From Pseudoalteromonas rubra (lineage in GTDB: Bacteria > Pseudomonadota > Gammaproteobacteria > Enterobacterales > Alteromonadaceae), in contig NZ_AHCD03000044.1 in assembly GCF_000238295.3 (NCBI RefSeq), forward strand, positions 1,056,845 to 1,080,844: a stretch of DNA of 24,000 nucleotides. The letters are read 5' to 3'. Below, piece by piece: positions 990 through 21,800 of the stretch. A program made the position numbers and the translations under genes. The notes beneath the pieces are model-generated. The model did not search any database. It was given only the letters and a program-made list of their open reading frames with translations, and was not told the origin of the DNA. The number at the start of each line of letters is the position of its first letter. Within the stretch, counting starts at the first letter, position 1.

Positions 990-1007
990 GTTGAGAGGCT
1001 AAAACAC

Positions 1008-1040: not shown

Positions 1041-1086
1041 GCTCATCGGTTAATTGGAACTGCTAGTCAGTTCAGAGGAGCAAATC

Positions 1087-1263: not shown

Positions 1264-1400
1264 CAGAAAATCCGGCATTGCCTAAATTCACTATTTGATT
1301 GTGACCAAAAAACAGGCAAGCTAAAAACAGAGGATGTAGATCCTCAAGATAAGATAACAAGGATTGCAGTTCTGACTGCGTCGTAGCGCTCAGTATTATG

Positions 1401-1428
1401 ACCAGTGGCGGACTTTCAGGCCACTGGT
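1401..1428 (+). promoter_or_regulatory. 9-bp perfect stem-loop 23 nt upstream of the ABC exporter start
   Basis: accagtggc (1401-1409) pairs with gccactggt (1420-1428) around a 10-nt loop. No T-tract follows, so it is not a classical terminator. It may be a 5'-UTR structure or a palindromic operator. Confidence 0.25.
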
Positions 1429-1451
1429 AACACAATGAAAAGACAATAAAA

Positions 1452-3113: not shown

Positions 3114-4267
3114 ATATAATCCTGCCTCCTGATCTGGCGCTCATAGGATTGGCGGCTGCCTGCCTGTTGATCCTCATTGCTAACCTGGTAATGCGGGCTC
3201 TCAGGCGCTACAAACCCGCATGGCGTAAACGCATATTGTCCTGGCGCTTCAGAGCTGGTTTAACCCTATTGATTTGTTTGTTCTTAGTCGTGGCGTTGGT
3301 TCCATTTATCTTTATCCGGGTTGACTCCGGTGAGATTGCTGTTTTGTGGAAGCGCTTTGGTGGAGGTACGTATCTGGATCAGCACTTTAGTGAAGGTACA
3401 GTTCTGGTTATGCCCTGGGATAAGTTGGTAATTTACAACGGACGTTTTCAGACTGCACATGAAAGCATAGATGCGATCACCAGCGAGGGTCTCAGAATCA
3501 CACTCAATGTCACAGTCAGGTATCGCCCTGTCATTGAGCATGTGCCTTATCTGCATCAGCTGGTAGGGCCCAGGTACCTGGAGGAGATGGTGTTACCTGA
3601 GGTGGCATCGGCGGTACGTATGATAGTGTCGCGCTATCGTGCTGAGCAGGTTTACAGTCATCAACGGATACAAGTGCAAAAAGAGCTGCTGGAAGAAGTG
3701 CTGCATGAACTACATCTTCAGGAAGAAACGATTTTAGAGCAAACCGGCCACATGAAAGATGGTCATACATTAGTTAATTTAGACGATATGCTGATCAAAC
3801 GTGTCGATGTGCCCGATAAGGTGCATGAGGCGATTATTTCTAAGGTAAATCAGAGTTACCTGAATGAGGAATACGCGATGCGGCTTGAAGTAGCAAAGAA
3901 AGAAGCGCAGCGTAAGAAAACAGAAGCACAGGGTATTGCCGATTTTCAGGAAACCGTGGCAGGCGGTATCTCGGAAACTTACCTGAGATGGCGCGGTATT
4001 GAAGCGACTATTGAACTGGCAAAATCAAACAATGCCAAAGTGGTTGTGATAGGGAGCGGCAAAGACGGGCTGCCGTTGATCCTGAATACAGAAAGCAGCT
4101 TGAATGGCTCTGCCCCTAACCTGGTTCAGGAAACAGCCAATTTAGTTAAAGCTGAGGAAGCAACAAGGCCTGTGCCTGACTACGTAAACAGCGTGATTAA
4201 ACCAGGTGAGCCTATGAGCACGCATCATATGAGCTCTGCAAAATCTGGAGAACCATTGCATAAGTGA
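3110..4267 (+). CDS. SPFH / band-7 (prohibitin, HflK/C-like) membrane protein, 385 aa
   Basis: The ATG overlaps the ABC stop (ATGA at 3110-3113). Two N-terminal hydrophobic segments are followed by the typical SPFH start GEIAVLWKRFGG...VLVMPWDKLVIY...ITSEGLRITLNVTVRYRP. A coiled-coil-like segment EEYAMRLEVAKKEAQRKKTEAQG comes next. Confidence 0.82.
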   Translation: MNIILPPDLALIGLAAACLLILIANLVMRALRRYKPAWRKRILSWRFRAGLTLLICLFLVVALVPFIFIRVDSGEIAVLWKRFGGGTYLDQHFSEGTVLVMPWDKLVIYNGRFQTAHESIDAITSEGLRITLNVTVRYRPVIEHVPYLHQLVGPRYLEEMVLPEVASAVRMIVSRYRAEQVYSHQRIQVQKELLEEVLHELHLQEETILEQTGHMKDGHTLVNLDDMLIKRVDVPDKVHEAIISKVNQSYLNEEYAMRLEVAKKEAQRKKTEAQGIADFQETVAGGISETYLRWRGIEATIELAKSNNAKVVVIGSGKDGLPLILNTESSLNGSAPNLVQETANLVKAEEATRPVPDYVNSVIKPGEPMSTHHMSSAKSGEPLHK

Positions 4268-4758: not shown

Positions 4759-4932
4759 TTATCTTGGGTTACAGGTATTCACTGGGTAGTAAGAAAAATA
4801 TGGGCAACCTTTCTGGACTCTGGTTGGTGGAATAGCCGTTGCACCACCTGCGATCATTGGTGTTTGATCTGAGTTCAGCGCGTTTTTATTGCCTAGGTTT
4901 TTTAGGTTCTTTTTACTTAGTTGTAACTTCAT
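4759..4932 (-). CDS. 57-aa double-glycine-leader peptide precursor (bacteriocin/RiPP/signal-peptide-like), not in the ORF track
   Basis: Hand translation gives MKLQLSKKNLKNLGNKNALNSDQTPMIAGG|ATAIPPTRVQKGCPYFSYYPVNTCNPR*. AAGGAG lies 6 nt upstream of the ATG (complement of 4939-4944). The leader aligns position for position with the second peptide at 11611..11775. The core has 2 Cys. Confidence 0.6.
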   Translation of the reverse strand: MKLQLSKKNLKNLGNKNALNSDQTPMIAGGATAIPPTRVQKGCPYFSYYPVNTCNPR

Positions 4933-5447
4933 GGAGATCTCCTTCTTCTGTTTAATAATTGTTCGGTAATATTGTTCTCACAAAGTACACTGAGTGTAAA
5001 TTGAAAGAATCTAATGTGTTAATTTTATTGTCTTGAATGGGGGGCTATTCAGTGTGTTGAGTTTCTAAATGATAGCTCGCAATTTACTGTTCTCTGTATG
5101 ATTTTAACGTACCAGCCTTTACATAGAGTTGGCCGGGGACAGAGGTTTTTACCACATCCATATTTTGTTCTTATTTTTTGGGTAATCTTTCGGGACGGTC
5201 TGAGGGAGCATTGTCTGCTTATGATTCGAGCTGTTACTGACGGTAATTACCAGCGCGGCGTTACGCTGCGCAGTAGTAAATATTCCGGGTGGGGATATTG
5301 CGCGTTTTTATGCGTCTGACAGTCATGGTTTGATAGTTCATTTGGCCTTTATTTTAAGGGTAAATAGAATAAATAAGTCTAGTCACTGGCCAGGGTAGCC
5401 TGAAAAGGTGGTCAGTATAAAAGACTGTAATTGAGAGTACTTGTATC

Positions 5448-5474
5448 AAGGCACACAGGATGTGCCTTTTTTAT
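5448..5474 (+). terminator. orphan Rho-independent terminator-like hairpin plus T-tract
   Basis: aaggcaca (5448-5455) pairs with tgtgcctt (5461-5468) around the loop cagga, followed by tttttat. No convincing + strand CDS lies upstream, so this may be the 3' end of a small RNA or a relic. Confidence 0.4.
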
Positions 5475-6227
5475 CCTTAAGCGCCCGCACTATTACTAAC
5501 AAGCACATTTTTTTCATCGTACTATCGATTATTGGCGTGTTAAATTTAAACAATGCCATCATGCTATGGTTGTTTGACTTCCATCGCTTCCTGCACTCCC
5601 TTTTTGGGGAGTTATCAATATCGGGTTTCAGGCGTATATTTCTATGAGCCTAAACGGACAGCCCGGCACACCTTTATATGACTCAATAGCAACATAATGC
5701 TTATATTGGTGTAATTAAGCACTTTTGGTGGCCTGGCACTGGCAATATCGCTATAAAAGTGACTGTTTTGACCAAGCATCGCATTGCTGCCTTTAGGTAA
5801 GACCTGATATGAATGAAGGCCGAAGAAAAATAAAATTATCAAACACGGTGCAAAAAGGCACTTTGGTATGCGCGCTAATGCGTCCTTGGTTGCGAGTGCT
5901 GAATACATGTTTGTTGTCCTGAGTTGTCCACGCTAGTTGGGGTGGCCGCAATTAGAAATGCATTCTGGTATTTATAGCCAGAATAGTTAGGGCAGTGAGT
6001 TCTAAGCAGTTTGAGGGCATTTGCTGCGCTTGCATGGAACCTCGGGTTTTCGCCGGAGTCGAAAGCTGACACAAGCAAAGCGATGAAGTGAGCGATTATG
6101 GCACTCTGATGCCTGGCTAAATCGGGTGCTGGTTATCGCTAACCAGCGAGCTTGCAGATAATCAGCCTGGGGTTTTACAGGGCTTAGTATAAAGAATCCA
6201 GCTAAGTAAATTGAGCGTCAATAAGTA

Positions 6228-6268
6228 GGCCAACCACAGGGGATATACACTGGGTTGGCCACTTTTTT
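6228..6268. terminator. hairpin with flanking T/A tracts abutting the luxR-family stop (possibly bidirectional)
   Basis: ggccaacc (6228-6235) pairs with ggttggcc (6253-6260), extended by cag/ctg. tttttt (6263-6268) follows on the + strand. On the minus strand the hairpin lies immediately after the TAA of the 6267..6980 gene. Confidence 0.45.
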
Positions 6269-6980
6269 AAGGGATGAGCAAACTTTGCTTTGCTTTGAGT
6301 ACTGCCTCAGTTCTGTTGGCTGCACCCAGTTGACTAAGGATCTGGCTTACCAGCTCTTTAACTCTGTCTTTAGACACTTGCATCAGCTCAGATATTTCCG
6401 GGTTAGTCATCCCTTTGGCCATATATAGCAAACACTCGCTACTTTTTGGCGTTAAAGTGGGTCGCATAAATAAATAGTCAGGGCACTCTTTGATTATTCT
6501 GGGGATCAGAGTGAGTGTGATATCACTTAATATCGTACTATGTTGATGATAAACAGATTTTATTTCATCACATGTTTGGCTGGAAAAGAAATTCACCAAT
6601 ACAATTGCGCCGCCATAATGAACAGGTATGACTATGCCGCCATTGATATTCTCCTGAGCTAACAGGTTGCCTAATGTTTTTGGCGCAAGCGTTGCGCTTT
6701 GGTAGTCATGAGTGCTCCAAAAGCGCGGTGCCAGTGTTTGCTGGCAGTAGTCGATCAGGTCATCAGAAAAACAATGTCCATCTGTAAAGTAAGCGCGAAG
6801 GAATTGTTCGGAACAAGTAGAAAGATACCTGAAAACGGGCTCGGTGCCATTCACCCCAACAATGAGAAACTGGTCCATACCTAGTGGTTCTGAAAATCGG
6901 CTTAGAGCGGTAGTGATGGCTGTCTCCGGATACAATGCAAAGGCATCCGGGTGGCTGATTTTGTTACCTGAGTAGTCCAT
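6267..6980 (-). CDS. LuxR-family transcriptional regulator (solo), with an N-terminal ligand-binding-like domain and a C-terminal LuxR/GerE HTH
   Basis: 237 aa, with AGGAG 5 nt upstream of the ATG. The C-terminus LTPKSSECLLYMAKGMTNPEISELMQVSKDRVKELVSQILSQLGAANRTEAVLKA is a typical LuxR/FixJ HTH. The N-terminal ~170 aa is the right size for an autoinducer-binding domain, but I cannot confirm the signature residues. No luxI-type gene is in the window. Confidence 0.8.
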   Translation of the reverse strand: MDYSGNKISHPDAFALYPETAITTALSRFSEPLGMDQFLIVGVNGTEPVFRYLSTCSEQFLRAYFTDGHCFSDDLIDYCQQTLAPRFWSTHDYQSATLAPKTLGNLLAQENINGGIVIPVHYGGAIVLVNFFSSQTCDEIKSVYHQHSTILSDITLTLIPRIIKECPDYLFMRPTLTPKSSECLLYMAKGMTNPEISELMQVSKDRVKELVSQILSQLGAANRTEAVLKAKQSLLIP

Positions 6981-7312: not shown

Positions 7313-10300
7313 ATGTTAAGTAGGATACTGGCAACGATCTTGTTGCTTATCGTGCACTGTCAGGCGCTGGCAGAATCGCCAAACCAACTGAGGTTACATC
7401 CGTTAGACGTTGATAAACTGGATATGGTCACTGTGATCAATTCTGTCACTCAGGATAGTCAGGGCTATTTGTGGGTCAGTGGTATTTCTGGTGTACTAAA
7501 ATTTGATGGTTATCACTCTATCTTTTACCCGCTTGAACAAGCCAGAAAAGTGATAGAAGACGCGCAGGGAAGAAGGTGGCTTCTGACTGGCAATGGCCTG
7601 TATCTATACTGTCATGTAACGGACAAGTTCAACCGTTACCTGAGCGACATGCATCAGGACGATATGCATAATAGCTCCTTATTCCGGGACAGCTATAGCA
7701 TTGTTCGACGTATTGATAGTAAAACCTTTCGTCCAACTGAGTTGTATCAGGATAGTCAGAATAAGCTTTGGCTGGTGGGTGACGATGGGCGTTTGATATA
7801 CTTTTCGGCTGATCAGGAACAATATGAAAGTTATGACTTTCCCAGTTCAATAATTCAACATAACCTGCGTTTTGGTATTACATTTTTCAATGATCTGCCA
7901 TTGTTTGTATCTAAAGATGGCAAAGTGTATAGCCTGGATAAAACAACAGGCTCATTTTACGTGTTGTTTCAAGATAACAGGCTGGTGAACACCAGAATTG
8001 TGACTACAGGCCTTTCGAACACTGTGCATCTTGTGTCAGATCATGGTCTTTTCATACTCGACTTGTCAAAACCAAGTCCGCAGTCGCTGACAAAACTAGA
8101 TATCGACCCGCGTTCTATCACCTCTGTTCATGTTGGGCACCATGCTACATTTATAGGTACAAATAAATCGCTTATTGTGTTGGACGCAGACAATCATGTT
8201 AATCGCGTGAGCAGTTATTATTCTGATGGCCTTCAGCAAAATATATTCGGAGTCCAAAATGTGTTTGACGATGAGCGTGCTGTTTGGCTCTCTACAAGTA
8301 AGGGGGTGTACCAGGTAAAGTTTGCACAAACAACACAGGCAAATGGATATGTTAAGGCATCACTGAACGCAACAAAAATGCCGATGATTGAAAGCTTGCT
8401 TGTAGATAAGCGTGACAACCTCTGGATTGTCAGCCAGCGCAAAGTTTACCTGAAAAAAGCAAATACAGGACTAACGGAAGCTATCGAGCTCGATGCTAAT
8501 CGAACAGATGTGCAAGTCCAAACCGTTTTTGAAACCAGAGATGGATCCGTTATGTTCGGAGGGGTGTCGGAGTTGTATCAATATGACATAGAGCGACAGC
8601 GTTTCAGGAGAATACCACTACCGCTAGACCCGGCTAAGATGGGCAAGGAAGTTAGGGACATAGAGCAATCTGAAAATGGTCACTTGTGGTTGCTTACCTT
8701 TCAGGGGGTCGCTGAATATATACCAGCTAAAAACGAAATCGTGTCTTTTCAGCCAGGTCATTTTAAAAACCTGAAAAAAGGTCCCAATGGCACCGTTTTG
8801 GCCTGTGGTTTTGAAACTTACACCCTCGGCAAAGGTAAAGCAGAAAAAGTAGATTTTCAGTTAGAAGAATCAATTAAACATTTAGTTGTATACGATGCGT
8901 CAGTAGACCAAAGTGGGAGATTATGGGCAGCAACTTCACACGGACTATTGCTGCATGAACTGGACACTAAAAGTACTCGAAAACTCGATTTAAACGGCGT
9001 TTATCCCAATGTGGTTTTTGCTTTTACCTACCGGGATAACGGGGGGCACATCTGGCTGATTGATATGACTAATATATACAAAGTTGAGCCAGAGACAATG
9101 GAAGTCGTTTATACAGAACCCGTCAAGCGACTGAACATTGGTGCGAAGACCTATGGTAGCGTGTCGGAGTCATCTTCGGGCACCTTGTTTCTTGGTGGCG
9201 TTAGTGGATTTGCCGCGCTTGAAAATACCACAACCATTGCACCTTATGGTGTGCACTTCAGCCGTGTCATTGTTCAAGGACAAAGTTATCCTGTATATCA
9301 AGCAGAACCCGGGTTGGTAAATACGATTTCTCTAGGCACTGAATTTACGAGTGCGCAAAGAAACGTAAAGTTTGAGTTTGTAAATATTAAACGTGACCCT
9401 AATGTTGATATTTACTATAAATATCGTTTAATTGGGTTTGATTATGAGTGGACAGAAGTTGACCAAACTCAGCGTAATGCAACTTATACTAACCTGCCAT
9501 CAGGTGATTACGAATTTGTAATAAAAAGTCGCTCAATTTCGAGTGAATGGACTGAGTCTAGATTTAAATTTTCCATTGCAACTCCTTACTATTTAACTGT
9601 TTGGGCATTTCTGTTTTATGCGGTATGTTTGATATTACTCATCGCATTAATATTGATTGTTAGAACACATCAGCTGAAACGGCACAATCTTCAACTTGAA
9701 ACACAAGTTCGGGCACGCACAGAGGAAATTGAACAAAAGCGGGTGCAAATTGCCAATCTAATGGAAAGCAAGAACAAACTCTTCGGCAATATTTCACACG
9801 AATTACGCACGCCCTTATCTGTAATCATGCTGCCAATAAAAAGCATGCTAAAACAGAACCCGGACAAAGAAAATATCAGATGGCATGCCGCATATTCTCA
9901 GGCTGTCCGGCTGGAAAAATTAATTGATAATTTGATCCGTTATGCGAGGAAAGACAACTTCGCACCGCCTGAAAATCACCAGTTTACTGCCAGGGTCGTG
10001 CTAATGAAGCAGATACAGGCTTTTGATCTGCTTGCACATGAGAAACAGATCAAGATAAAAACAGACATATGTCTGACCTGTCAGGAAGTTGTGCTTAACG
10101 AAGCCGATTTTGAGCAGGTTGTGACAAACCTGTTGTCTAATGCGGTGAAATATACGCCAGATGGAGGAATAATTCAGGTTTGTGCACAGCAAAAAGGTAA
10201 TATGCTGGTGCTGATGTTTACGAACTCGGGACCCGGTATAGAGCCTGCACTTCAGGCGGACATATTTAAACGTTATGTGCGTGGCACACACAATGACATA

Positions 10301-11290
10301 GCAGGGCAGGGAATTGGATTATCTGTGGTTCATCAGTTGATATCTGGGTGCGGTGGCGCAATTGAACTGACCAGTGAGCCCGGGCAAGGTTGTCTGTTTA
10401 CCTTACATATCCCAATTTTTCTTAACTCGCATAATGAGTTTTATCAAAAAGATCTCTCAGCAATCCAAGACAATGCGTCTGAATCGGAAAGCGCGGATAC
10501 ATTAGAACGAATTTTAATTGTTGAGGATAACCCCGATCTCAGAATGATGTTAAATGAGGCGCTATCGGTCTGGTTTAATTGCACGGTAGCCGGGGATGGC
10601 GAACAAGGCCTGGCAATGGCAAAGAACATTTTACCGGACCTGATAGTCAGTGATGTCATGATGCCGGTTATGACAGGTCTTGATATGTTACGTGCGGTTA
10701 AACAAGACGAAATGACCAGCCATATTCCTGTTGTGTTGCTCACAGCCAAAGAAGATGATGCCAGTCGTATCATTGGATTTGAAGCTGAAGCAGATGATTA
10801 TATGGGCAAGCCATTTGATATCGATGTATTGAGAATTCGAATTGAAAACCTGATCAAGGGTCGCAAGAAGCTGGCACATTTATATCGGCATCATATTTTG
10901 CACGGCGAGGATATAGCGCAGGCCCGTCAAGAAGATAAACGTGTACCTTTTATAGATAAGCTACATCATGTGATCGCACAACATTATCAGAACCCGGAGT
11001 TTGATACTGAGCACATGGCCAGTCTGGTATTTTTGAGTACCAGACAGCTACAGCGTAAATCAAGGAGTCTAACTGGGTTATCACCTATTGCTTTGCTCAG
11101 ACAATACAGGCTACAGCAGGCCTGTAAACAGCTCAGAGCCGGGGCTTTGGTAGCTGACGTAGCCTATCAGGTGGGCTTTTCCTCTCCGGGTTATTTTAGT
11201 AGTTGTTTTAAAGCTGAGTTTAGCTTGTCTCCACAGCAGTATGTCAGGCAATTTGCCAAAGCGGCTTATGAGGATGAGGCGGGTCAGTGA
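7313..11290 (+). CDS. hybrid two-component system sensor kinase/response regulator (propeller repeats, Y_Y_Y, TM, HisKA, HATPase_c, REC, AraC HTH)
   Basis: 1325 aa.
- Signal/TM: MLSRILATILLLIVHCQALA.
- Repeated QD/ED..G.LW..G..GL motifs typical of two-component regulator propeller repeats.
- Y_Y_Y-like segment: YKYRLIGFDYEWTEV...YTNLPSGDYEFVIKS.
- TM: YLTVWAFLFYAVCLILLIALILIV.
- H-box: FGNISHELRTPLS.
- N and G boxes: NLLSNAVKYTPDGG and GQGIGLSVV.
- REC: ILIVEDNPDL...LIVSDVMMPVMTGLD...LLTAK.
- AraC HTH: VAYQVGFSSPGYFSSCFKAEF. Confidence 0.92.
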   Translation: MLSRILATILLLIVHCQALAESPNQLRLHPLDVDKLDMVTVINSVTQDSQGYLWVSGISGVLKFDGYHSIFYPLEQARKVIEDAQGRRWLLTGNGLYLYCHVTDKFNRYLSDMHQDDMHNSSLFRDSYSIVRRIDSKTFRPTELYQDSQNKLWLVGDDGRLIYFSADQEQYESYDFPSSIIQHNLRFGITFFNDLPLFVSKDGKVYSLDKTTGSFYVLFQDNRLVNTRIVTTGLSNTVHLVSDHGLFILDLSKPSPQSLTKLDIDPRSITSVHVGHHATFIGTNKSLIVLDADNHVNRVSSYYSDGLQQNIFGVQNVFDDERAVWLSTSKGVYQVKFAQTTQANGYVKASLNATKMPMIESLLVDKRDNLWIVSQRKVYLKKANTGLTEAIELDANRTDVQVQTVFETRDGSVMFGGVSELYQYDIERQRFRRIPLPLDPAKMGKEVRDIEQSENGHLWLLTFQGVAEYIPAKNEIVSFQPGHFKNLKKGPNGTVLACGFETYTLGKGKAEKVDFQLEESIKHLVVYDASVDQSGRLWAATSHGLLLHELDTKSTRKLDLNGVYPNVVFAFTYRDNGGHIWLIDMTNIYKVEPETMEVVYTEPVKRLNIGAKTYGSVSESSSGTLFLGGVSGFAALENTTTIAPYGVHFSRVIVQGQSYPVYQAEPGLVNTISLGTEFTSAQRNVKFEFVNIKRDPNVDIYYKYRLIGFDYEWTEVDQTQRNATYTNLPSGDYEFVIKSRSISSEWTESRFKFSIATPYYLTVWAFLFYAVCLILLIALILIVRTHQLKRHNLQLETQVRARTEEIEQKRVQIANLMESKNKLFGNISHELRTPLSVIMLPIKSMLKQNPDKENIRWHAAYSQAVRLEKLIDNLIRYARKDNFAPPENHQFTARVVLMKQIQAFDLLAHEKQIKIKTDICLTCQEVVLNEADFEQVVTNLLSNAVKYTPDGGIIQVCAQQKGNMLVLMFTNSGPGIEPALQADIFKRYVRGTHNDIAGQGIGLSVVHQLISGCGGAIELTSEPGQGCLFTLHIPIFLNSHNEFYQKDLSAIQDNASESESADTLERILIVEDNPDLRMMLNEALSVWFNCTVAGDGEQGLAMAKNILPDLIVSDVMMPVMTGLDMLRAVKQDEMTSHIPVVLLTAKEDDASRIIGFEAEADDYMGKPFDIDVLRIRIENLIKGRKKLAHLYRHHILHGEDIAQARQEDKRVPFIDKLHHVIAQHYQNPEFDTEHMASLVFLSTRQLQRKSRSLTGLSPIALLRQYRLQQACKQLRAGALVADVAYQVGFSSPGYFSSCFKAEFSLSPQQYVRQFAKAAYEDEAGQ

Positions 11291-11567: not shown

Positions 11568-11597
11568 CAAGATCAGGCATTATTTTGCCTGATCTTG
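11568..11597 (-). terminator. 11-bp perfect hairpin just downstream of the GG-leader peptide gene 2
   Basis: caagatcaggc (11568-11578) pairs with gcctgatcttg (11587-11597) around the loop attatttt, 14 nt beyond the minus-strand stop at 11611-11613. It lacks a clean U-tract. Confidence 0.4.
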
Positions 11598-11610: not shown

Positions 11611-11775
11611 TTAATCGGGCAAGGTACATGTAAGGATATTGCCATTGGAGTCGATTGGTGTTCCAGCAGCATCCTGGTTAGTAGCGCCCCCCTGGACAAG
11701 TGGCGTTAACTTGCTTTGTAGACCCGTTTTAGTAGATAAAACCTTTAATTTTTTTGCTTTGAGGTTAAGTTTCAT
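11611..11775 (-). CDS. 54-aa double-glycine-leader peptide precursor, paralogue of 4759..4932, not in the ORF track
   Basis: Hand translation gives MKLNLKAKKLKVLSTKTGLQSKLTPLVQGG|ATNQDAAGTPIDSNGNILTCTLPD*. AAGGA lies 7 nt upstream of the ATG. The leader matches peptide 1 at MKL.L..K.LK.L..K..L.S..TP....GGAT, with GG at residues 29-30 in both. The track's + strand ORF 11639..11851 is antisense to it. Confidence 0.6.
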   Translation of the reverse strand: MKLNLKAKKLKVLSTKTGLQSKLTPLVQGGATNQDAAGTPIDSNGNILTCTLPD

Positions 11776-11988
11776 AATGGTTTCCTTTTTGTTATGTCAC
11801 CGACGCCACTTTTGCATTTTATTCGAACTATGTAAATGGTCACGTCTCTAAAATAAGTACTTGTTCTTACCCCCATTTGGGGGGGGAGTAAAGCCTTAAA
11901 GGTAACTTATTGTAGCTTCAGAACCTGGATTCTATGGCCGATTGAAAGTATCTATCAAGTCGCACTCCCCCTCTAGCAAGCGCGAAGT

Positions 11989-12013: not shown

Positions 12014-12236
12014 CAGCTTACTCGTCACTGTTTTTACTTGAACATATGGCTGCATATGTCGATGTCGCGATGACTCACTTGAAAAACTACTCGCTTCATC
12101 ACAGTACATGGAATTGTACGTGAACCGATTTCGAACAACTTTTTTAATGTTTATCTTGTTGTTACGTCTTTACTCTAGTTTAATAGCCGTGAATTTGTGC
12201 AGTTTAGGTACAAATCACATAAAAAAAGGAATGATA

Positions 12237-14168
12237 ATGAAGACAAAAGCAACAAAAGCCCTGATTGCTGGGTTATTACTCACGCCTGCACTTTATGCGC
12301 ATGCAGACGCAACCAAAGGATATGCCGATCCCTACAATTTTAACAATCATGGTAAGTGTAGCTTCAACGATTCTGGCCCGAGCTATTCAGATGATTCTGA
12401 CTACAACTACATCAACTATATCAAAAATAAGGTCTCGCCGTATCACCATTTGAATACCACTTTGAATGAACGTTTACTGCGTGGCAGCTACTACAGTCTG
12501 GACAATCAGCTTTTCTATGTGGGCGGGCAAAATGTGCCTAAATATTCCGGCCCGGCAGCGACAGGTTCCGCAAAAGCAGCTCCTATGGCGGTTCAGCGTG
12601 GCGACTGGACGTATTACATTATCAATGGCGCGCATTCAGATTGTGCACTCAATGCACCCGCACCAAATAAAGGGTATGAGCGTTTGGTATACGCAGTGGG
12701 TGCCTATAATCATAAATCGGGCATGATTAAAGAGCCTGTGATAGTGCATGTAAAGGATACTAGCGACTTTCATGACACGGCAGTCATCAATGTAGACAGC
12801 CAGGGCTATGTTTATGTATTTATCTCCGGGCGTAATTCGACCCGGGGTGGTCTGGTTTATCGCTCCTCGAACACGCATGACAACTTTTTTGCAAACTTAG
12901 GCTCATTTAAGCTGGTTGATGCAGTTAACGAAGTCGGTAACGAATTAGATAGCAGCCATAATTGTCCGAGTAGCGGCGATAAGTGTTATAACCTGGGCTT
13001 TACCTATCCACAGGCTTGGTGGGTGGACAATAAATTTGTATTGCTTAACACCCGTTATATACAAACGTCTGATGATATGAAGGCGGCATTCCGGCAAACA
13101 GCGCGTCGTCAGCTATATATGACAGAATATAAGGTACAGCCAGGAGGGCTGGAGGCGCCGATAACTAAAAAGCTGGTTGCACTGGATGATAAACGGAGCT
13201 TCGGCCATTATGCCGTGAGTACAGAGCGAAATGGTGTACTGGCCATGGCTTTTAATGTACACGTTCCTGATCGTTGTACTCGCAGTGACATAAAGCAAGC
13301 TGATTGCGAAGCAAAAGGCCTTAACGGCAGGCTAGAGAATCGTCATTACCCCAATGACAACCGCACTAACCTGTACTTTATATACTCCAGAGATGGCGGT
13401 AAAACCTGGTTAAACAGTCAACACAAGACGCTTATTGACACAAGTCGTGGCCAATACATTAATACGCTGAGTAAGCTCAACGAAGCCTTGTTGTATCAGC
13501 CAGATACCAGTGTTGACATCGTCAACGGTTACAACCCTTACAGCACAACCATCAAAAAGCGTATTTATGTCAAAGATCTGGACTTTAACACCAATGGCTA
13601 TCGCGGTTACCTGACTTCTTTGAAAGTACTGATCACAGAAAGTGATGGTATTCACGGCTTTGTGCCGAAAACATCTGCTGAGTCTCGTCGAATGATCCGG
13701 GCCTTGGTTATCGATCATAATGGCAAAAAAGACTACGTAGGTTGTTACAATTCGGCTGATTGCTGGGCTGACCATGCGTATTCATCTGGTACGATTATCA
13801 CCCATACTCAATACGGTTACAGTGAGCTTGCTTTCCCTATGTCAGCTGGCGACATGCTGGCTGGCGGTAAAGTTCACCTGTATAGCAGTAACTTAAAAAC
13901 CGCGGGTGACGTAAAAGTGTGGAGCTATCTGGGCGCACAAGACTACCGTGACCCGAACGATGTAAACTACATCCGCAAAGTACACAATGCCAAATCTGTA
14001 ACGGGTGACGAGCCTGTTTACTTCTGGGCGCAAAGTGAAACTAATTCTCGCGTTGATCTTGTATTGGCCGGACGTAAAGGCCAGCAAGTACAGTTGACAG
14101 GCAACTTTGGTACAAACAAGAAAATGGCTTGCCCAACGCGCTACGTGTTTAACCGTTGTACAAACTGA
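12237..14168 (+). CDS. secreted protein with an Asp-box (BNR) motif, possibly a beta-propeller / sialidase-like fold; function unknown
   Basis: The ORF-track frame 12108..14168 is kept, but ATG 12237 (or 12231) is preferred as the start. AAAGGA lies just upstream, and the product then begins with a classical signal peptide MKTKATKALIAGLLLTPALYAHA|DA. The Asp-box SRDGGKTW is at nt 13386-13409. The protein is rich in Tyr/Asn/Gly, as in extracellular beta-rich proteins. Confidence 0.75.
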   Translation: MKTKATKALIAGLLLTPALYAHADATKGYADPYNFNNHGKCSFNDSGPSYSDDSDYNYINYIKNKVSPYHHLNTTLNERLLRGSYYSLDNQLFYVGGQNVPKYSGPAATGSAKAAPMAVQRGDWTYYIINGAHSDCALNAPAPNKGYERLVYAVGAYNHKSGMIKEPVIVHVKDTSDFHDTAVINVDSQGYVYVFISGRNSTRGGLVYRSSNTHDNFFANLGSFKLVDAVNEVGNELDSSHNCPSSGDKCYNLGFTYPQAWWVDNKFVLLNTRYIQTSDDMKAAFRQTARRQLYMTEYKVQPGGLEAPITKKLVALDDKRSFGHYAVSTERNGVLAMAFNVHVPDRCTRSDIKQADCEAKGLNGRLENRHYPNDNRTNLYFIYSRDGGKTWLNSQHKTLIDTSRGQYINTLSKLNEALLYQPDTSVDIVNGYNPYSTTIKKRIYVKDLDFNTNGYRGYLTSLKVLITESDGIHGFVPKTSAESRRMIRALVIDHNGKKDYVGCYNSADCWADHAYSSGTIITHTQYGYSELAFPMSAGDMLAGGKVHLYSSNLKTAGDVKVWSYLGAQDYRDPNDVNYIRKVHNAKSVTGDEPVYFWAQSETNSRVDLVLAGRKGQQVQLTGNFGTNKKMACPTRYVFNRCTN

Positions 14169-15195: not shown

Positions 15196-15804
15196 GTGAT
15201 GTCTGACTCCACATTAGAATACTACAGCCGCAACGCAGTCAGTTTTGCAGAGGCAACCTTCGCGGTAGATATGCAGCCGCTGTACGACGTGTTTTTACCT
15301 GCCATATCCAAAGGCGGTAAAATCCTCGATGCCGGTTGCGGCTCAGGCCGCGATGCACTGGCGTTTAAAAACCTCGGCTACCGGGTGGAAGCCTTCGATG
15401 CCTGCGCCGAACTGGCCAACATCGCCAGCTTCCACCTGGAACAACCCGTAGGCTGCTTCAGTTTCGACGAACTCAGAGACATCAACACTTATGACGCTAT
15501 CTGGTGCTGCGCAAGCCTGTTACATGTCCCCATGGCAGAGCTCCCGGCGGTTTTTCAGCGCCTGCAAAACGCACTCAAACCAGAAGGCATAATCTATATC
15601 TCGTTTAAATACGGTGAAGGCGAACGCACTACAGATGGCCGCGCATTCACCGATCTCACAGAGCAAAGCCTGAGCGCCTTACTTGCCCAAAACACCGGTC
15701 TTAAAGCCTGCAAAACCTGGCAAACCGGCGACCAACGCCCCGGCCGCGAACACAAACGCTGGCTCAATGCTTTGTTGGAAAGGGTGGGGGCTGGGTCAGG
15801 CTGA
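15196..15804 (+). CDS. class I SAM-dependent methyltransferase (small-molecule/protein type)
   Basis: 202 aa, starting at GTG 15196 or the adjacent ATG 15199. Motif I is KILDAGCGSGRDALAF, followed by an acidic post-I residue (VEAFDA) and then DAIWCCASLLHVP...LKPEGIIYISF. No DNA-methyltransferase motifs (DPPY/NPPY or PC...ENV) are seen. The gene is notably GC-rich, about 60% in one hand-counted 60-nt line. Confidence 0.82.
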   Translation: MMSDSTLEYYSRNAVSFAEATFAVDMQPLYDVFLPAISKGGKILDAGCGSGRDALAFKNLGYRVEAFDACAELANIASFHLEQPVGCFSFDELRDINTYDAIWCCASLLHVPMAELPAVFQRLQNALKPEGIIYISFKYGEGERTTDGRAFTDLTEQSLSALLAQNTGLKACKTWQTGDQRPGREHKRWLNALLERVGAGSG

Positions 15805-15953
15805 TGTGTAATGTGGTGTAATTTGGAACTTGACCTCAATCAGAACAACCAAACATAACCTTATGATATAGTAGGAAAGTTTTAGATATTAGGAACGCCA
15901 GTCGGCCCCACAAGCGAAACAATGGATAGGAAACTCTCAAAGACAGGAATTTT

Positions 15954-17567
15954 ATGCGTTTAAAAGAAGCTTTAAGTGTTTTATCTAAGTCTTCACCTTA
16001 TTCAGTATCCACTCTAAGAACAGGTGAACAACCTGAAGACTACAAATATAAAGAGTACTTATACATTAAGCCTCAAATTGCAATTGACTTTGAAGCTTTG
16101 TTACTTGATAGCCCTGAAGGTAGCCTCTTGTTTTTGTGTGGTAGCTCAGGGGATGGTAAGTCAGAAATCCTAACTCGGCTTTGTAATAAACCCGAATTTC
16201 AAGATGTAGTATTTCATTTAGATGCCACTCATGGAAAAACCCAACACGGTACAGCGGTTGAAAGCCTTGATGAGCTGTTTGATGAACAGAAGCAACAACA
16301 ACATAAACTCGCTGTCGGTATTAATATTGGTATGTTCCAAAAGTTTATTAAGTTTGGCTCTGATAAGCATAGCGACATTAAAGTGCTATTTTCTAAATTT
16401 TTAGAAAATAGACATGAAAAAGGGTATCAAATAGAGAATGCATATTTTTATGATTTTGAAAGTTACCCAAGATTGCATTTCGATAAAGGCGGTGTGAAAT
16501 CTGAGTTTGTTTTTTCTTACTTAAAAAACTTAACAAAAGAATGTGACTCTAATCCATTTTACGAATTATATCTTTCAGAAAAAGAGAAAGAAAATCAGAT
16601 AGCTTATAACTTTCAAATAATAAGTTTGTCAGAATTTCAAAGTGCGCTTGTTTACTTATTTGGCCTGATTAGGTTGCATGATGAGCAATTTCTAATCCCT
16701 AGACTTTTTGTTGATTTTATTTATCAATTAATCACAACAGAAAATGATGACGGAATAATTGGTAATATTTTCACGTGCCTAGATAACCAGCTTTCGGAAA
16801 AAATAGTTGGTCAAGACCCGCTCCAATCCAGTAGCCAAAAGCTTGATAGCTTTTTACTCGCGCTAGCAACCGGTTCGTTAAGTGAAAATACTCTTGAAAG
16901 CATTAACTATCTTCAAAAAATGGCTGGTTGTAAGCTAAGCAAAAATAATCTAATTAGGTTTGCGTGGGTTTTAAATAAAGAGTTAGGTGACCTCTATCCT
17001 GAAAGTCAGTTAAACAATTTAATTAATAATGAAGTCTTAGAAAGTTACTGCGCTCTTTATGAAATACTTATTAAAAGTGAGTTTAACGAGGAAGAGGTAG
17101 ATTTATTAATCGGTATTTTAGAAGAAAATTTACTGGCTGATGTAGCTAACTATGTAAATAGAAAAGTTAATACCGATGTCAGTGGCTTTGTGATCAGTCG
17201 AGAACTAAAAGACTTTGCTATTTGTAACAAAATAGAAGCGGAAATAGACCTCGATTGGCTAGAGGAAAATAAACTAAAAGCTCCAGATATAATGCCAATA
17301 CGGTTTTTAGTTAATGGCGATGAGGCTGTTACTTTAAACCTTGATATAAAAGTATTTACTCTCATAAGAAATATCCAAAACGGGTACTTGCCAAACAGAA
17401 ACTTGCATAATGAGTACACAAAACTCGAAGAGTTTATATCTGAGTTAATCGCTGCTACTTCAAAGGCTAAGGAAGTGCGAATTATAGATAAAAAAGCGCA
17501 AGGTACTTTCTATGCTGAAGCAAAAAAGAGTCGTAGAGGCTACACAGTGGTAGGTGACTTCAAATGA
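15954..17567 (+). CDS. dptF: P-loop NTPase, DptF/DndF-like (candidate first gene of a phosphorothioation-dependent-restriction-like cassette)
   Basis: 537 aa, with AGGA 6-9 nt upstream of the ATG. Walker A GSSGDGKS is at aa 63-70 (nt 16140-16163), and a possible Walker B is VVFHLDATH. The gene is AT-rich and overlaps the next gene by ATGA. The Dpt assignment rests on size, P-loop position and three-gene synteny, not on a homology search. Confidence 0.6.
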   Translation: MRLKEALSVLSKSSPYSVSTLRTGEQPEDYKYKEYLYIKPQIAIDFEALLLDSPEGSLLFLCGSSGDGKSEILTRLCNKPEFQDVVFHLDATHGKTQHGTAVESLDELFDEQKQQQHKLAVGINIGMFQKFIKFGSDKHSDIKVLFSKFLENRHEKGYQIENAYFYDFESYPRLHFDKGGVKSEFVFSYLKNLTKECDSNPFYELYLSEKEKENQIAYNFQIISLSEFQSALVYLFGLIRLHDEQFLIPRLFVDFIYQLITTENDDGIIGNIFTCLDNQLSEKIVGQDPLQSSSQKLDSFLLALATGSLSENTLESINYLQKMAGCKLSKNNLIRFAWVLNKELGDLYPESQLNNLINNEVLESYCALYEILIKSEFNEEEVDLLIGILEENLLADVANYVNRKVNTDVSGFVISRELKDFAICNKIEAEIDLDWLEENKLKAPDIMPIRFLVNGDEAVTLNLDIKVFTLIRNIQNGYLPNRNLHNEYTKLEEFISELIAATSKAKEVRIIDKKAQGTFYAEAKKSRRGYTVVGDFK

Positions 17568-18877
17568 ATGAACATTTAATTCAATCAAAAAATAGGGTTA
17601 GTAGTAACTATAAAAATAACGCAGCTCGTTATCTCCCAATAGGTCCTAGTTTACCTACAGCACAAAACTTGAACTGGAATATTGTTTATAAAAGCTTATG
17701 CCGAAATATATTTTCACTTGAATGCAATATACAGACACGAAAAGAGTTTTATGAAAATATATTAAGAGACATTAAAGAGAATAGGCATACAAAAGATTTA
17801 GCTACAATTATTGAAAAAGTTTACTTTGAAAATACTGAGTCTTTTGAAATTACACCATACTCTAGGCTTATAAATAGCGAAAAAGTACATGCCAGAACTA
17901 AAACAATGGTAGATGTGTTTGATGCTATGCTGTGCGGCTTAACTACTGAAAATGTAGATTTTATAGGCAATAATTTTCTCGAAGAGATAGTAAATAATAC
18001 TGCTAAGCAATTGTGTAATGAAATTGTAAAAATTAAATCAAAGGCTCCATATTTGCCGTTTTTAGCAAAAAAATGCCAAGAAGATTTTTCATTTATTAGC
18101 GCGAGGCCTGAATTACTCAATGAGTCAATGGAACATCTTATAGAGATATACGCCTTTTTATACATTACTCAGTTATCACTTCATTTATATTCTCCTAAAT
18201 TACGTTTCAGTGAGCCAACCAGTCAGGAAATGTACTTTATCTTAGAAGGAGAAAAAGCAAGTAAAGAACGACACTTTACATTTTTAAAAGGTTACAAAAG
18301 GGTTTTTGAAAAAGATGTAGGAGCTAGTTATGATATTTTTCCTCATTTAGGTTACTTAGAGTTAATTGCAACCGAACCTCTTTGGGCTGTAAGTCAACAA
18401 GCCCATGAACAAGTTTTTATTGACCAAATAAACGAATTGAATTCCTCATTTTGTAATGAGTTTAATATTCACTTTGCTGGAAATCGCACCTCTTTTGAAG
18501 ACGCTATAAATGATGGGTTGACCTATCATAAAGAAATTTTTAAAGAAAATAACAAAAAGTCAGAGCGTTACAGAGCTAATCAAATGGTTTGTACTGCTGC
18601 AACAACTAATTTTGCTAGTAACTTTAAAGTCAATAAAGGCAGAGCTGGTGGTTGGTACTTCCAGTTATCAACTAAGACAGTATTACTTATCACGAATCTA
18701 ATTATTGGAAATAAGAAAAAGCTATTAATCGATGATGTAGTTGAAGGCTTTAATGAGCGTGGGATTTATTTCGATCTCAAATCTAAACAAGCACTTTTAG
18801 CGATTTATGAAAATATCGGAAATGTAATTAAATTAAGTGATAGTGGGGATGCAGTGTATGTCACAAGTACCATTTGA
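17564..18877 (+). CDS. dptG: 437-aa protein of unknown biochemical function, DptG/DndG-like by position and size
   Basis: It is translationally coupled on both sides, with ATGA at 17564-17567 and a 20-nt overlap with the next ORF. I recognise no catalytic motif. Its size and middle position match DptG. Confidence 0.55.
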   Translation: MNEHLIQSKNRVSSNYKNNAARYLPIGPSLPTAQNLNWNIVYKSLCRNIFSLECNIQTRKEFYENILRDIKENRHTKDLATIIEKVYFENTESFEITPYSRLINSEKVHARTKTMVDVFDAMLCGLTTENVDFIGNNFLEEIVNNTAKQLCNEIVKIKSKAPYLPFLAKKCQEDFSFISARPELLNESMEHLIEIYAFLYITQLSLHLYSPKLRFSEPTSQEMYFILEGEKASKERHFTFLKGYKRVFEKDVGASYDIFPHLGYLELIATEPLWAVSQQAHEQVFIDQINELNSSFCNEFNIHFAGNRTSFEDAINDGLTYHKEIFKENNKKSERYRANQMVCTAATTNFASNFKVNKGRAGGWYFQLSTKTVLLITNLIIGNKKKLLIDDVVEGFNERGIYFDLKSKQALLAIYENIGNVIKLSDSGDAVYVTSTI

Positions 18878-21800
18878 GTCGTTTCTCTTAAAGCTTTTTC
18901 TTGAAAGTATTGAACTTGGTAATACTCGTTCAACGAAATTCCATTATGTGTGTTCTGTTCCTGATAAAGCCAAAAAATTATTTAATGCGCGACTAGGTGT
19001 TTTGAATACAAAAAATAGCTCATTAATAATAGACGATGTCACAGTACCAGTTGTTGAAGCTGAATGTGGGTTAAAGTTGATTATTATGCTGCATGATAGT
19101 GCGGCAAAAGAAAAAGATACTTATAGCGAAGATTTTATTGCAAATGTAAGAGATGCGATCAATAACCTCGAAAATACAAGCTTATTCGTAATACATAATA
19201 GTGCTCTAGAGACAATACTAACAAGCTGTCAGGATATAAGTGTAAGCGATGGCGTTTTTACACCTGAGTATGTACAAAACCAGTTGGATAAATTAGCTCA
19301 AAAGCACAAACATACAAATGTCATTGAAGCTATTGCAGAGAAGCAAAAGCGTGACGTTGAAGAACAAAATTTAAGTGTATTTGGTTATGAAGCGTTATAT
19401 AACTCTATAATCAATAATGAAACAAAATTCCAACAGCACGGTCTTTTTCAAGATAGTCGCTTATTAGATTTCACTGATAGAAAAGCGATTAAAAATGACA
19501 TTAATAAAAATGGCAGGCTTTATACAGAGATAGAGGCAATCAAAAACGATCACCTTGATGAAAATAGCGCCAAAGAAAAATTTGAAAAGCTAGGTTTTGG
19601 TGAGAAATTTACAAAAGACAATTTTCTCAAGGGTGATAAATGGAAAGAGCTTGAGTTTAGTGCTTTAGAGACTGAAATAGAAAATAACAAAACAAGAAAA
19701 CTCACTTTTGAGCAATTAGAAGTAAATGGTCAAAAGCATAAACATATCAAAGCCCATGATGCAAAATGCAAAGTCAATAGTATTTTGATTGAAGCCGAAG
19801 CAGGCCCGCTGGAAATAAAGGTTAAATACAATAAAGGCGACACTTTACTTAAAATGGATGAAGTTAAAGTGGTCGGTGATTATGCGTTAAGCAGGTTAGA
19901 ACCACGTATCGGCAATCATGAAAAATATAGCATTCTGACAACTAACTTTAACTATGATGGTAGCGTTAAGTTATTCCAAATTAAGTTAAACCGCACGAGT
20001 GGCCCTGAAAAGATCCAACTTAATATTCTGTTGATCCCCAAAAATACACTCCCATTAATAAACATATGGGAAAAAATGACAATAGAGTTTAATCGTAATA
20101 AAGGGCAGGTAAACCTAGATAATGTCACTGAGCCGCTTGTATTTTATGAAGATTTAAATGAAGCCCTTGATGTATCAGCCGTTGACTCAAAAGTAGATTT
20201 ACTAAAAATAGGAAAAGTAAACTTCTTACCTTTACTTGAAGCTGAAACCGCAAGCACAGCGACTCTTTTTTATGAATTTCATGAATTACCAGTACACCTG
20301 TTTGGTAAAGCCAGTTTAGGAAAAATTAAACTACCGAGTATTCTTGATGAGAGTCGAATAAACAATATCTATAGTTTAGATGGTCAAGCAAATTATAAAA
20401 CAGATACTCAACGTGTTGTTTACGCAGGTAAAGAGAAAGAGCTTTCTGTAAGCGCAAAAGGCTTATGTAGGATAGAAGCTGAATTTATAGAAAGTAATTT
20501 ACTTTATAAGCACCAAACTACAGATGAGCAGCTCAAGCTAGTTGAATTAAAAGATATTAACGCCAATTTAGCTGAAGCATATCAAACTCTTTATAACTGG
20601 CTTTCGACTAACAATACCATATTGTCATTAACAAGCTGGCCCGAAGAATTACAAACAATAGTTGAGAGCTTACTTGAGCACTTTGAAACAGCCTTAAGTA
20701 GTATTCCAGAAAGCTCCTTATCTACTCATCATAAAGCCCTAGTTAAAGTGGGCATGTACCATGGGAAATTTGAGCAAGAAGAAGATACGACAGATTGGTT
20801 GACGCCTTTTCACCCTATGGTGTTGAGTTATTTATTGCAACTAGTAAAGCAAAATAATGACGGCAATAAAGTGATAGGCAAGCTGCCAAAAGTAACCATT
20901 GATAAATTGACACCAGCAGGTCTTCTTCCTGTTGTTTATGATGCTAACTATGACTACGCATATAGCAAGCCAGCTTCAGCAAATAGACTCTGGTTGCAAA
21001 TAGTACCTCAGAAGCAAAGTAATCAAAGTTATGTCGCTAAGTTAGTACAAGAAAAGCTTCATGATTTCATCGGTTGTTTCAACATGTTATTTGAGAGAAA
21101 TCAAAGTACGCCAGTACTAATAAACTCAATACATAACCAAAAGAATGAATATGTGTTTGAAGGCATAATAGATTACTATCGCCGAAATAAGGAAAAGGCA
21201 CTTCGAATTCATATCACTCTGTATGATGACAGGCTGCACAACACAGCGTTTGATACATTTACTGAGTCCACAGATATTAATTTACTTAGAAAGCTAGTAC
21301 GAAAGAAAGAAAGCGAAAAAGTAGACGAAACTGATTCTTTGATAAATCTTGTAAAAAGTAAACTTATTTACAGTAAGAAGGTTAATCAAGAAGATTATGT
21401 TTATGCTCACATTTCCTTTTTCAAAAACAATGAAAAAGTTAAGCTTGTCGACAAAGCTGCAAATAGCGCCAATTCTGGTGTTGGTTGTAATGGTTTAATT
21501 GCAGGTGAAGCTTCGTATCTAGAAAATGAAAACTATTACACTGGTTTTGGTATTAAAGGGCTTGAGCAGCTAAGCGCACCAGTAAGATTTGCACTGAAAT
21601 ACAATAGCTTGTTTAAGCCTTTTCGCGATAATACCGCGAGTTATAATCCCTCTATTGTTCCAGCATTGGCTGTTAAAGATACATTCAGGCAGTCATTAAA
21701 TTCGATTTATTCATCGAGTATATGGACATGCATTGTCGATCCAAAAGTAACGCTAGAGTTTTTTGATGATAAAGATACTATTCTGATCCATTATTCAGAT

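Follow-up and report, generated by a model that had tools for sequence, protein, structure and literature searches.

The 54-residue peptide encoded by PRUB_b1161, called peptide 2 in the following, is probably a genuine, translated class I LanA with a double-glycine (GG) leader. We assign a probability of about 0.6 to this reading, in which the gene stands as an orphan on chromosome 2 of Pseudoalteromonas rubra, and maturation and export are provided in trans from chromosome 1 by an HlyD-PCAT-LanC-LanB operon that has no precursor of its own. We likewise consider it rather probable that LanBC does mature peptide 2.

In the proposed pathway the 30-residue, Lys-rich leader would dock peptide 2 on LanB, which would dehydrate Ser/Thr residues of the core via glutamyl-tRNA. 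LanC would then join core Cys20 to the dehydro-residue seven positions upstream (core Ser13), such that a single 8-residue thioether ring is formed. The C39 domain of the ABC exporter would cleave the peptide after Gly29-Gly30, and the C39-ABC exporter together with the HlyD adaptor (presumably also TolC) would export a 24-residue acidic peptide. We infer that LanB accepts the divergent leader of peptide 2; the pattern of dehydration and ring closure as well as the cleavage site are predicted in the same manner.

The peptide 2 gene and its signals

Peptide 2 lies within a 24-kb stretch of DNA that was analysed as a whole and that we call the window (Table 1). The original prediction had placed a 54-aa ORF here, and both its coordinates and its translation (MKLNLKAKKLKVLSTKTGLQSKLTPLVQGGATNQDAAGTPIDSNGNILTCTLPD) were exact, with the minus strand being the coding one. 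An identical NCBI entry exists under PRUB_b1161, annotated as “hypothetical protein” of P. rubra chromosome 2. The gene is convergent with that of a hybrid sensor kinase and divergent from the gene of a secreted BNR_4-like protein. Past the sensor kinase follow a LuxR solo and then peptide 1.

Table 1. Features of the window that are discussed in the text, in order of their coordinates.
Feature	Position	Strand	Description	Basis
ABC transporter gene	1452-3113
Peptide 1 gene	4759..4932	minus	paralogue of peptide 2, type T1, 57 aa; core ATAIPPTRVQKGCPYFSYYPVNTCNPR with 2 Cys
LuxR solo gene	6267-6980
Hybrid sensor kinase gene	7313-11290		1325 aa, AraC-type output
Hairpin	11568..11597	minus	perfect 12-bp stem, loop AAATAA; 14 nt after the peptide 2 stop, in the gap that separates the convergent genes of peptide 2 and the sensor kinase
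Peptide 2 gene, PRUB_b1161	11611..11775	minus	54 codons plus stop (stop codon 11611-11613)	ORF translation
Peptide 2 core	11614..11685	minus	residues 31-54, ATNQDAAGTPIDSNGNILTCTLPD; 5 Ser/Thr, 1 Cys
Peptide 2 leader	11686..11775	minus	residues 1-30, MKLNLKAKKLKVLSTKTGLQSKLTPLVQGG; ends in the double-glycine cleavage motif	leader HMM, profile search
Shine-Dalgarno AAGGA	11783..11787	minus	7 nt upstream of the ATG of peptide 2	sequence
Putative promoter of peptide 2	11808..11836	minus	TTTACA (11831-11836), 17-nt spacer, TGc-AAAAGT (11808-11816)
Methyltransferase gene	15196-15804

The AAGGA ribosome binding site that had been noted for this gene stood, while the stem of the hairpin after the stop codon comprises 12 rather than 11 bp. 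The hairpin folds with a dG of -23.7 kcal/mol (z = -5.66), and none of 200 shuffled sequences was equally stable. Since it carries no U-tail, it was not called by a terminator scan. It is also kept in the allele L003 and is probably a transcript end or a stabiliser. Upstream of the gene, the TTTACA box at about 60 nt from the ATG is kept across strains in genes of the types T1, T1b and T2 (see below) and may well have promoter function; a consensus promoter scan favours an overlapping pair, GTGACC/TAAAAT (11843-11816). Across 91 non-redundant precursor loci of the family described below, AAGGAA was found at a fixed distance from the ATG in 50 loci, compared to a maximum of 31 after shuffling. 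This ribosome binding site was the sole enriched motif, and no shared upstream operator was found among the 91 loci.

Peptide 2 is a real coding gene under purifying selection. Intact orthologues are present at at least seven other loci (among them L001, L003, L004, L005, L006 and L008), which in the rubra-group strains occupy the same genomic position. For the leader, pairwise dN/dS values were 0.05-0.3 with synonymous sites being saturated between the subtypes 2a and 2b, and the variable sites were distributed over the three codon positions as 13/8/25. Three other assemblies encode the same peptide 1, and the four alleles vary at 12 DNA sites, every one of them synonymous. The original view that both small ORFs are real thus holds. 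It had named equal conservation of all codon positions and lack of an intact ORF elsewhere as marks of a repeated non-coding element that could mimic a leader similarity. Given the dN/dS values, the third-position bias, the purely synonymous changes in peptide 1 and the intact orthologues, such an element, or a spurious ORF, has practically negligible probability. Nothing more than the small size of the ORF speaks for it. The DNA flanks of the peptide 1 and peptide 2 loci could not be aligned, such that the likeness is seen at the protein level alone, where the relatives number in the hundreds and have their ribosome binding site at a fixed distance. An Rfam scan of the window gave no family match.

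Peptide 2 might instead be a decaying paralogue that, translated or not, is no longer processed and has no function. Its leader is divergent, and P. rubra SCSIO 6842 has lost the gene in a rearrangement associated with IS21, which shows it to be dispensable. Furthermore, the C-terminal tail differs even among near-identical alleles: the L003 allele is 96% identical to that of the window, yet 4-6 codons after the Cys codon are wholly swapped (TLPD vs VETKRI), with identity returning from the stop codon onward. We nevertheless consider decay very improbable, as the leader has been under constraint over a divergence that saturated the synonymous sites between 2a and 2b, as ribosome binding site, TTTACA box and hairpin are kept, and as the key residues of the core are invariant.

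The leader family and its cores

The similarity between peptides 1 and 2 is above chance. The 17 identical positions that had been listed for their first 32 residues were all exactly right. When peptide 2 was compared with phmmer to the 678 stop-to-stop segments of the window, peptide 1 was found with E = 1.4e-5, and the next segment had an E-value of 0.95. A third family member was not found in the 24-kb window, which holds just these two peptides. The claim that the two cores are unrelated after the first residues AT was contradicted by an alignment of 14 family sequences, in which P40, T49 and C50 are invariant. All relatives of the types T1 and T2 have the motif P...[S/T]-x5-T-C in their cores. 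Since this C-terminal ring motif is common to both, the cores of peptides 1 and 2 are divergent homologues.

A word-indexed search with four peptides provided 13 close relatives, all from Pseudoalteromonas, which form two orthologous groups. The T1 group, to which peptide 1 belongs, has the core A[ST]AIPPTRVQxGCPYFSYYPVNTCxPR. The core of the T2 group, to which peptide 2 belongs, is A..N..P.ATGSNITTC.[DE]D.. or the variant of the window. Some strains possess the additional tandem paralogues T1b and T1c. With an exhaustive profile search that used the 14 T1/T2 peptides and a limit of E<=1e-3, the family grew to about 160 cluster representatives, nearly all of them 40-90 aa long and matched at the N-terminal leader. 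Their canonical leader reads MKLKLNKKKLKNLSKD..LP.DMTPQVAGG and is followed by hypervariable, mostly Cys-rich cores. All family members with a name are a “hypothetical protein” from Pseudoalteromonas or Thalassomonas, and neither Pfam nor NCBIfam gave a match at threshold for the family peptides or holds a model for the family. A scan with a leader profile for relatives and their neighbour genes had been suggested; the searches gave the approximately 160 representatives and, as neighbours, genes of LanB, LanC, PCAT and HlyD.

A scan of species-representative genomes with 16 canonical leaders yielded 79 loci with 109 peptides. Nearly all loci came from pigmented Pseudoalteromonas, from Thalassomonas or from Colwellia, and a genome has several such loci at dispersed sites. 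As divergent leaders like that of peptide 2 are under-sampled by the scan pattern MKL[KQN]LNKK, counts per genome are lower bounds. Read in this way, rubra-group genomes contain at least 5-8 distinct precursors each, at no fewer than 3-7 dispersed loci. In Thalassomonas and P. denitrificans the canonical members are lone genes in unrelated contexts.

Peptide 2 has the register L(-12), L(-8), T(-7), P(-6), V(-4) followed by GG, which is that of the canonical ...L P A D M T P Q V A G G. We scored the 678 segments of the window with two leader HMMs. The broad one was built from 72 canonical leaders, none of them from a T1/T2 locus. It ranked peptide 1 first (E = 2.3e-10) and peptide 2 second (20.5 bits, E = 1.5e-5), and the next match in the window, from outside the family, had an E-value of 0.49. 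The narrow one was built from 14 leaders located directly beside LanC or PCAT. It provided E = 1.4e-6 for peptide 1 and a non-significant 7.4 bits (E = 0.14) for peptide 2; without the composition (null2) correction peptide 2 reached 14.9 bits (E = 7e-4). Peptide 1 passes both HMMs and, by its phmmer similarity to peptide 2, bridges peptide 2 to the family. With its register kept, peptide 2 reads as a divergent member of the leader family, and we regard its membership as almost certain.

The composition of the cores is in agreement with ring chemistry. Cys accounts for 10.4% of the residues in 95 distinct family cores, compared to 0.2% in the leaders, and in 94 of these cores Ser and Thr together are at least as numerous as Cys. 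In each of the 17 T1/T2-type cores examined, a Ser/Thr stands at -7 and a Thr at -1 from the C-terminal Cys, and the first Cys of the T1 peptides has a Thr at -6. From this spacing two rings are predicted for peptide 1, Thr7-Cys13 and Ser17-Cys24, and one 8-residue lanthionine ring for peptide 2, Ser43-Cys50 (core Ser13-Cys20). With a single Cys, an intramolecular disulfide is impossible in peptide 2. The tail after this Cys has four residues and is hypervariable. The calculated mass of the peptide 2 core decreases from 2401.107 Da for the unmodified form to 2311.054 Da at five dehydrations. An unannotated “hypothetical protein” is thereby given a testable role as a lanthipeptide precursor, with predictions for both its ring and its masses.

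Modification and export genes

In 12 loci the family peptides adjoin the gene of an ABC protein that has 706-737 aa and carries QSEAAECGLASLAMVA as its N-terminal motif; its Pfam domains are Peptidase_C39, ABC_membrane and ABC_tran (PCAT). The layout is recurrent, with LanB and LanC on one side of the peptides and the PCAT with an HlyD adaptor on the other side. LanB has approximately 1061 aa and matches Lant_dehydr_N with E = 8e-130 and Lant_dehydr_C with E = 2e-63 (Pfam), and LanC has 403 aa and matches LANC_like with E = 7e-44 (Pfam). All four genes were found together in 11 loci, and LanB with LanC in two further loci. The four-gene loci belong to P. citrea, fenneropenaei, peptidolytica, phenolica (two strains) and piscicida, to the strains sp. 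MSK9-3, MTN2-4 and BZB3, and to a Colwellia MAG. By this association, the leader family is one of class I lanthipeptide precursors that combine a double-glycine leader with a bifunctional exporter of the LanT type. Homologues of LanB and PCAT are widespread in Pseudoalteromonas, and LanB was found in every family-carrying genome that was checked.

No LanB, LanC or PCAT is encoded in the 24-kb window, and neither LanBC nor a PCAT was found within 10 kb of any of approximately 14 P. rubra loci examined. Many proteins of P. rubra fall into the 90%-identity clusters from rubra-group strains, among them PRUB_a4202 (LanB). This protein and PRUB_a4201 (LanC) share the locus-tag prefix PRUB with peptide 2, with the replicon being “a” instead of “b”. 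The HlyD protein KAF7785525 is from the same assembly as the LanC PRUB_a4201, and the accession order 25-(26)-27-28 suggests that the PCAT is encoded there as well.

The operon was read from P. rubra assemblies that carry the LanB of strain SCSIO 6842, whose operon proteins are ALU43600-43603. On one strand the order is glmU - HlyD (414 aa) - PCAT (714 aa) - LanC (404 aa) - LanB (1048 aa) - a 180-aa protein - an AraC regulator, with the domains PF04738 and PF14028 in LanB and PF05147 in LanC. The catalytic triad of the PCAT is intact (Cys31 in QSEAAECG, His in NHFVVL, Asp in IHDPA). Inside the operon, including the 184-bp gap between PCAT and LanC, no precursor was found. Beyond glmU, at 2-4 kb from the operon, there are three short ORFs with GG leaders. 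One of these operon-proximal ORFs, MKFKVQKKELKNLNEKKSLNAQHTRLIGGG..., has a 30-residue leader in the style of that of peptide 2. The originally proposed picture of a precursor family with conserved leader, variable cores and shared processing and export machinery is hence borne out: an operon with LanB, LanC, C39-ABC and HlyD lies beside the peptides in sister species and on the other chromosome in P. rubra.

As expected for a double-glycine leader, that of peptide 2 has the GG end and hydrophobic residues at about -4, -7/-8 and -12, and its core provides the Cys and the Ser/Thr that a LanA needs for (methyl)lanthionine. LanB and LanC are encoded in the same genome, and P. rubra possesses a PCAT with intact triad together with the adaptor. 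A location inside the cluster, by which precursors are usually recognised (e.g. within +/-7 genes, PMC7268733), is not found, since the enzymes are on the other replicon.

Several genes were considered as exporter or modifying enzymes and rejected. The ABC transporter of the window, together with SPFH, was ruled out as the shared exporter. It lacks a C39 domain, its match is the cyclic-peptide exporter model TIGR01194, and it points in the same direction as the neighbouring NRPS/TauD/beta-lactamase cluster, to which we assign it. The methyltransferase was dismissed as a RiPP tailoring enzyme, as every strain has it overlapping or coupled with defence genes that vary (PLD-helicase, DptFGH). In some strains a 315/316-aa and a 466-aa gene are located between LuxR and peptide 1, which are absent or decayed in the window. 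They are not modifying enzymes but encode secreted proteins with signal peptides, internal repeats and a GHSRGG hydrolase motif, and they gave no Pfam match.

Known systems and alternative readings

GG-leader lanthipeptide systems are already known from marine bacteria, and peptide 2 would add a member. The viridisins of Thalassomonas viridans are class I products with GG leaders and several precursors per operon, and VdsCB modifies VdsA1/A2 in E. coli under guidance of the GG leader; systems of the same kind occur in T. actiniarum (thalassomonasins) and in Pedobacter (Ped15) (PMC9680876). The likeness of peptide 2 to the viridisins (VdsA1-A3 with VdsC and VdsB) and to thalassomonasins A/B consists of the small GG-leader precursors, the paralogues with differing cores and the separate LanB and LanC. 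Thalassomonas peptides match our leader profile (P0028; L009, L010, L030), and the LanB and PCAT of Thalassomonas are homologous to those of the family. In contrast to peptide 2, whose proposed enzymes are encoded on another chromosome, these precursors lie beside LanCB in an operon. Peptide 2 also differs in its shorter, divergent leader (30 vs 31 residues), its one Cys and its unrelated core. Within the genus, PciA of P. citrea DSM 8771 was modified in E. coli with no extra tRNA-Glu being needed (PMC9993889). The pci cluster, from the strain of our locus L015, has the same LanB-LanC-PCAT-HlyD genes (identities to the BZB3 reference: LanB 72%, PCAT 89%). PciA is encoded in its cluster, unlike peptide 2, and the comparison covers the cluster genes. 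Ped15-type class I clusters also combine GG leaders with several precursors, in a different phylum. The leader style MKK/MKL...LKxL...GG is met in Bacteroidota GG-leader RiPPs as well (PF14406 Bacteroid_pep, TIGR04149; Ped15.1/15.2, pinensins). Membership of PF14406/TIGR04149 (GG_sam_targ_CFB) was rejected, as peptide 2 had no match at E<=10, and peptide 1 (14.1 bits) and its relatives (13.6-16 bits) stayed below the cut-off of 25 bits.

With the prochlorosins (ProcA/ProcM of Prochlorococcus and Synechococcus) the P. rubra peptides would share the architecture of one system with many precursors that have a conserved leader and hypervariable cores and are often encoded far from the enzyme. Such distant precursors are missed by neighbourhood-limited mining, as was noted for the prochlorosins in a large precursor-targeted survey that covered +/-7 genes from LanC (PMC7268733). 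Prochlorosins are cyanobacterial class II products of a single LanM with long Nif11-type leaders, whereas the peptide 2 system would be class I with LanB plus LanC and a short, Lys-rich leader. Peptide 2 itself is no prochlorosin, given the separate LanB and LanC in place of LanM and the absence of any Nif11 or NHLP leader match in NCBIfam. We tentatively put forward, at odds that fall slightly short of even, that the rubra group runs a class I counterpart of the prochlorosins. One precursor-less LanBC-PCAT-HlyD operon would then mature at least 6-10 scattered, hypervariable precursors from both chromosomes, including the hitherto unrecognised single-ring subfamily of peptide 2 with its post-Cys tail swapped between near-identical alleles. 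If true, relaxed-specificity class I enzymes would act in trans on products that are still diversifying. What is less ordinary compared to the known systems is the dispersed, cross-replicon set of class I precursors, the single-ring T2 subfamily and the swapped tail.

Peptide 2 could alternatively be a substrate of the peptidase-ABC exporter alone, i.e. be cleaved at its GG motif and secreted in linear form with no modification by LanB or LanC, as is the case for class II microcins and for the GG pheromones of Gram-positive bacteria. The GG motif and the hydrophobic -4/-8/-12 register, which are kept in peptide 2, are in agreement with this, and so are the divergence of its leader from the LanBC-adjacent leaders and its single Cys. 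Two of the 95 family cores have no Cys at all, such that lanthipeptide identity is impossible as a property of every member, and P. phenolica S1093 has a second PCAT-HlyD-AraC-peptide locus (L065) with no LanBC nearby. However, the Ser/Thr at -7 and the Thr at -1 are invariant next to a lone invariant Cys in cores that evolve fast, which is hard to understand without ring formation. In addition, the P. rubra PCAT shares an operon with LanC and LanB, and the genomes checked for the family all encode a LanB, so that we regard export without modification as unlikely. Class II microcins have leaders of about 15-19 residues, unmodified and usually longer cores, and an adjacent immunity gene. The likeness of the family to them (e.g. 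microcin V/CvaAB) lies in the GG motif, the C39-ABC protein with its CvaB-like QSEAAECGLA and the HlyD-type adaptor; unlike theirs, the family exporter is operonic with LanBC. With its 30-aa leader and neither an exporter nor an obvious immunity ORF beside its gene, peptide 2 was rejected as a class II microcin.

A further possibility is that peptide 2, be it modified or not, is a signal tied to the hybrid sensor kinase and the LuxR solo. The block of peptide 2, sensor kinase, LuxR and peptide 1 is kept in all rubra-group loci while its flanks vary, genes of AraC-type regulators lie beside the LanB operon and the L065 peptide as well, and the core of peptide 1 is nearly invariant between species, which would be unusual for a bacteriocin. 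Against this, the T1 orthologue of P. luteoviolacea is found in an unrelated neighbourhood without LuxR or kinase. The linkage thus represents lineage-specific synteny and is weak evidence for signalling. Canonical family members are likewise scattered beside unrelated genes, and no family-wide operator was found in the 91 non-redundant loci. Moreover, the kinase carries a Reg_prop/Y_Y_Y sensor, a type that senses glycans in Bacteroides, and the other neighbour of peptide 2 is the BNR_4-like secreted protein. Overall, a signalling role appears improbable, and maturation of peptide 2 by the chromosome 1 enzymes remains the reading that we prefer.

We found no literature that ties P. rubra to double-glycine peptides. 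For P. viridis the operon appears in an antiSMASH report, in which no precursor is mentioned (PMC11015633). Because this operon contains no precursor and its substrates are encoded at scattered sites, standard mining near LanC and antiSMASH-style reports would miss most precursors in these bacteria. For the bioactivity of Gram-negative class I lanthipeptides, the conserved pair of one-ring and two-ring peptides beside regulators offers an entry point. If the enzymes do act in trans on 6-10 cores that are unrelated to each other, they would lend themselves as promiscuous tools of class I that are well expressed in E. coli.

Variation within the leader family

Two alleles of peptide 2, from the window and from the family locus L003 of another genome, are about 96% identical, yet the 4–6 codons 3' of the conserved Cys are wholly different. 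The post-Cys tail reads TLPD in the window (11614–11625) and VETKRI in L003 (3527–3547). The tails differ in length by 6 nt, and the alleles match again exactly from the stop codon. As judged from the aligned alleles, this is a localised cassette-like diversification.

Otherwise different cores from several species (loci L041, L061, L079, L080, L058 and L006, the last being the rubra-group T1c paralogue) share the C-terminal motif TCG(M/R)G(Y/H/W)TC, which suggests a conserved terminal double-ring module. Two family-type peptides (L092 and L015, the latter from P. citrea DSM 8771) contain no Cys in their cores, such that lanthionine rings are impossible. Their end products may be dehydrated linear peptides, or the peptides may have a different role. 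The PCAT of the second locus in P. phenolica S1093 (L065) is more distant, with 60% identity, and neither LanB nor LanC was found within this locus. L065 is a possible lanthionine-independent branch of the GG-leader family.

Features in the window and in family loci of other genomes
Feature	Location	Strand	Remarks
DUF697, cyclic-peptide-type ABC exporter, SPFH/Band-7	window 429–4267		SPFH/Band-7 gene overlapping
BNR_4-like gene	window 12108–14168	+	
SAM methyltransferase	window 15196–15804		conserved; marks edge of variable slot
DptF	window 15954–17567		upstream of DptG, DptH
DptG	window 17564–18877		between DptF and DptH
DptH	window 18858–24000	+	continues past window end; TIGR03237, E=1e-237
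Second PCAT locus	L065 5662–10150		PCAT, HlyD, AraC regulator; family peptide immediately downstream
Cys-free GG-leader peptide	L092 1434–1583		near LanBC operon
Cys-free GG-leader peptide	L015 18045–18188		near LanBC operon

Surroundings of the two peptide genes

The DUF697, exporter and SPFH/Band-7 genes continue a co-oriented cluster (13.9–20 kb in L001–L003) that encodes a beta-lactamase-fold protein, a TauD dioxygenase and a 4011-aa NRPS. It is a natural-product cluster in its own right, at the border of the peptide locus. Between peptide 1 and the LuxR gene (4932–6267) lie 1.3 kb without ORFs. A weak match therein (5682–6067, + strand; tblastn E=0.002) points to a decayed remnant of the gene for a 466-aa secreted hydrolase, which is intact in L004 and L008; both loci also hold a 315-aa secreted protein with three repeats. 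For the BNR_4-like gene, an internal ATG (12237) is the probable start codon, rather than 12108: the resulting protein begins MKTKATKALIAGLLL..., which is signal-peptide-like, and agrees with orthologues of 643–645 aa.

Defence genes

When comparing window 15196–24000 with its equivalents in L004–L008, we found that the cargo 3' of the SAM methyltransferase differs by strain: DptFGH in the window, and PLD-helicase, DUF6575, ORC/CDC6-like, and Vsr plus DNA methylase genes in other strains. This slot is a defence-island hot spot adjoining the peptide locus. DptH is at least 1714 aa long and has an added C-terminal stretch (residues ~1470–1555) similar to sigma-70 region 4 and to MzaA, the MZA anti-phage sigma factor (E=9e-17). 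Such a fusion is unusual among Dnd-dependent restriction proteins.
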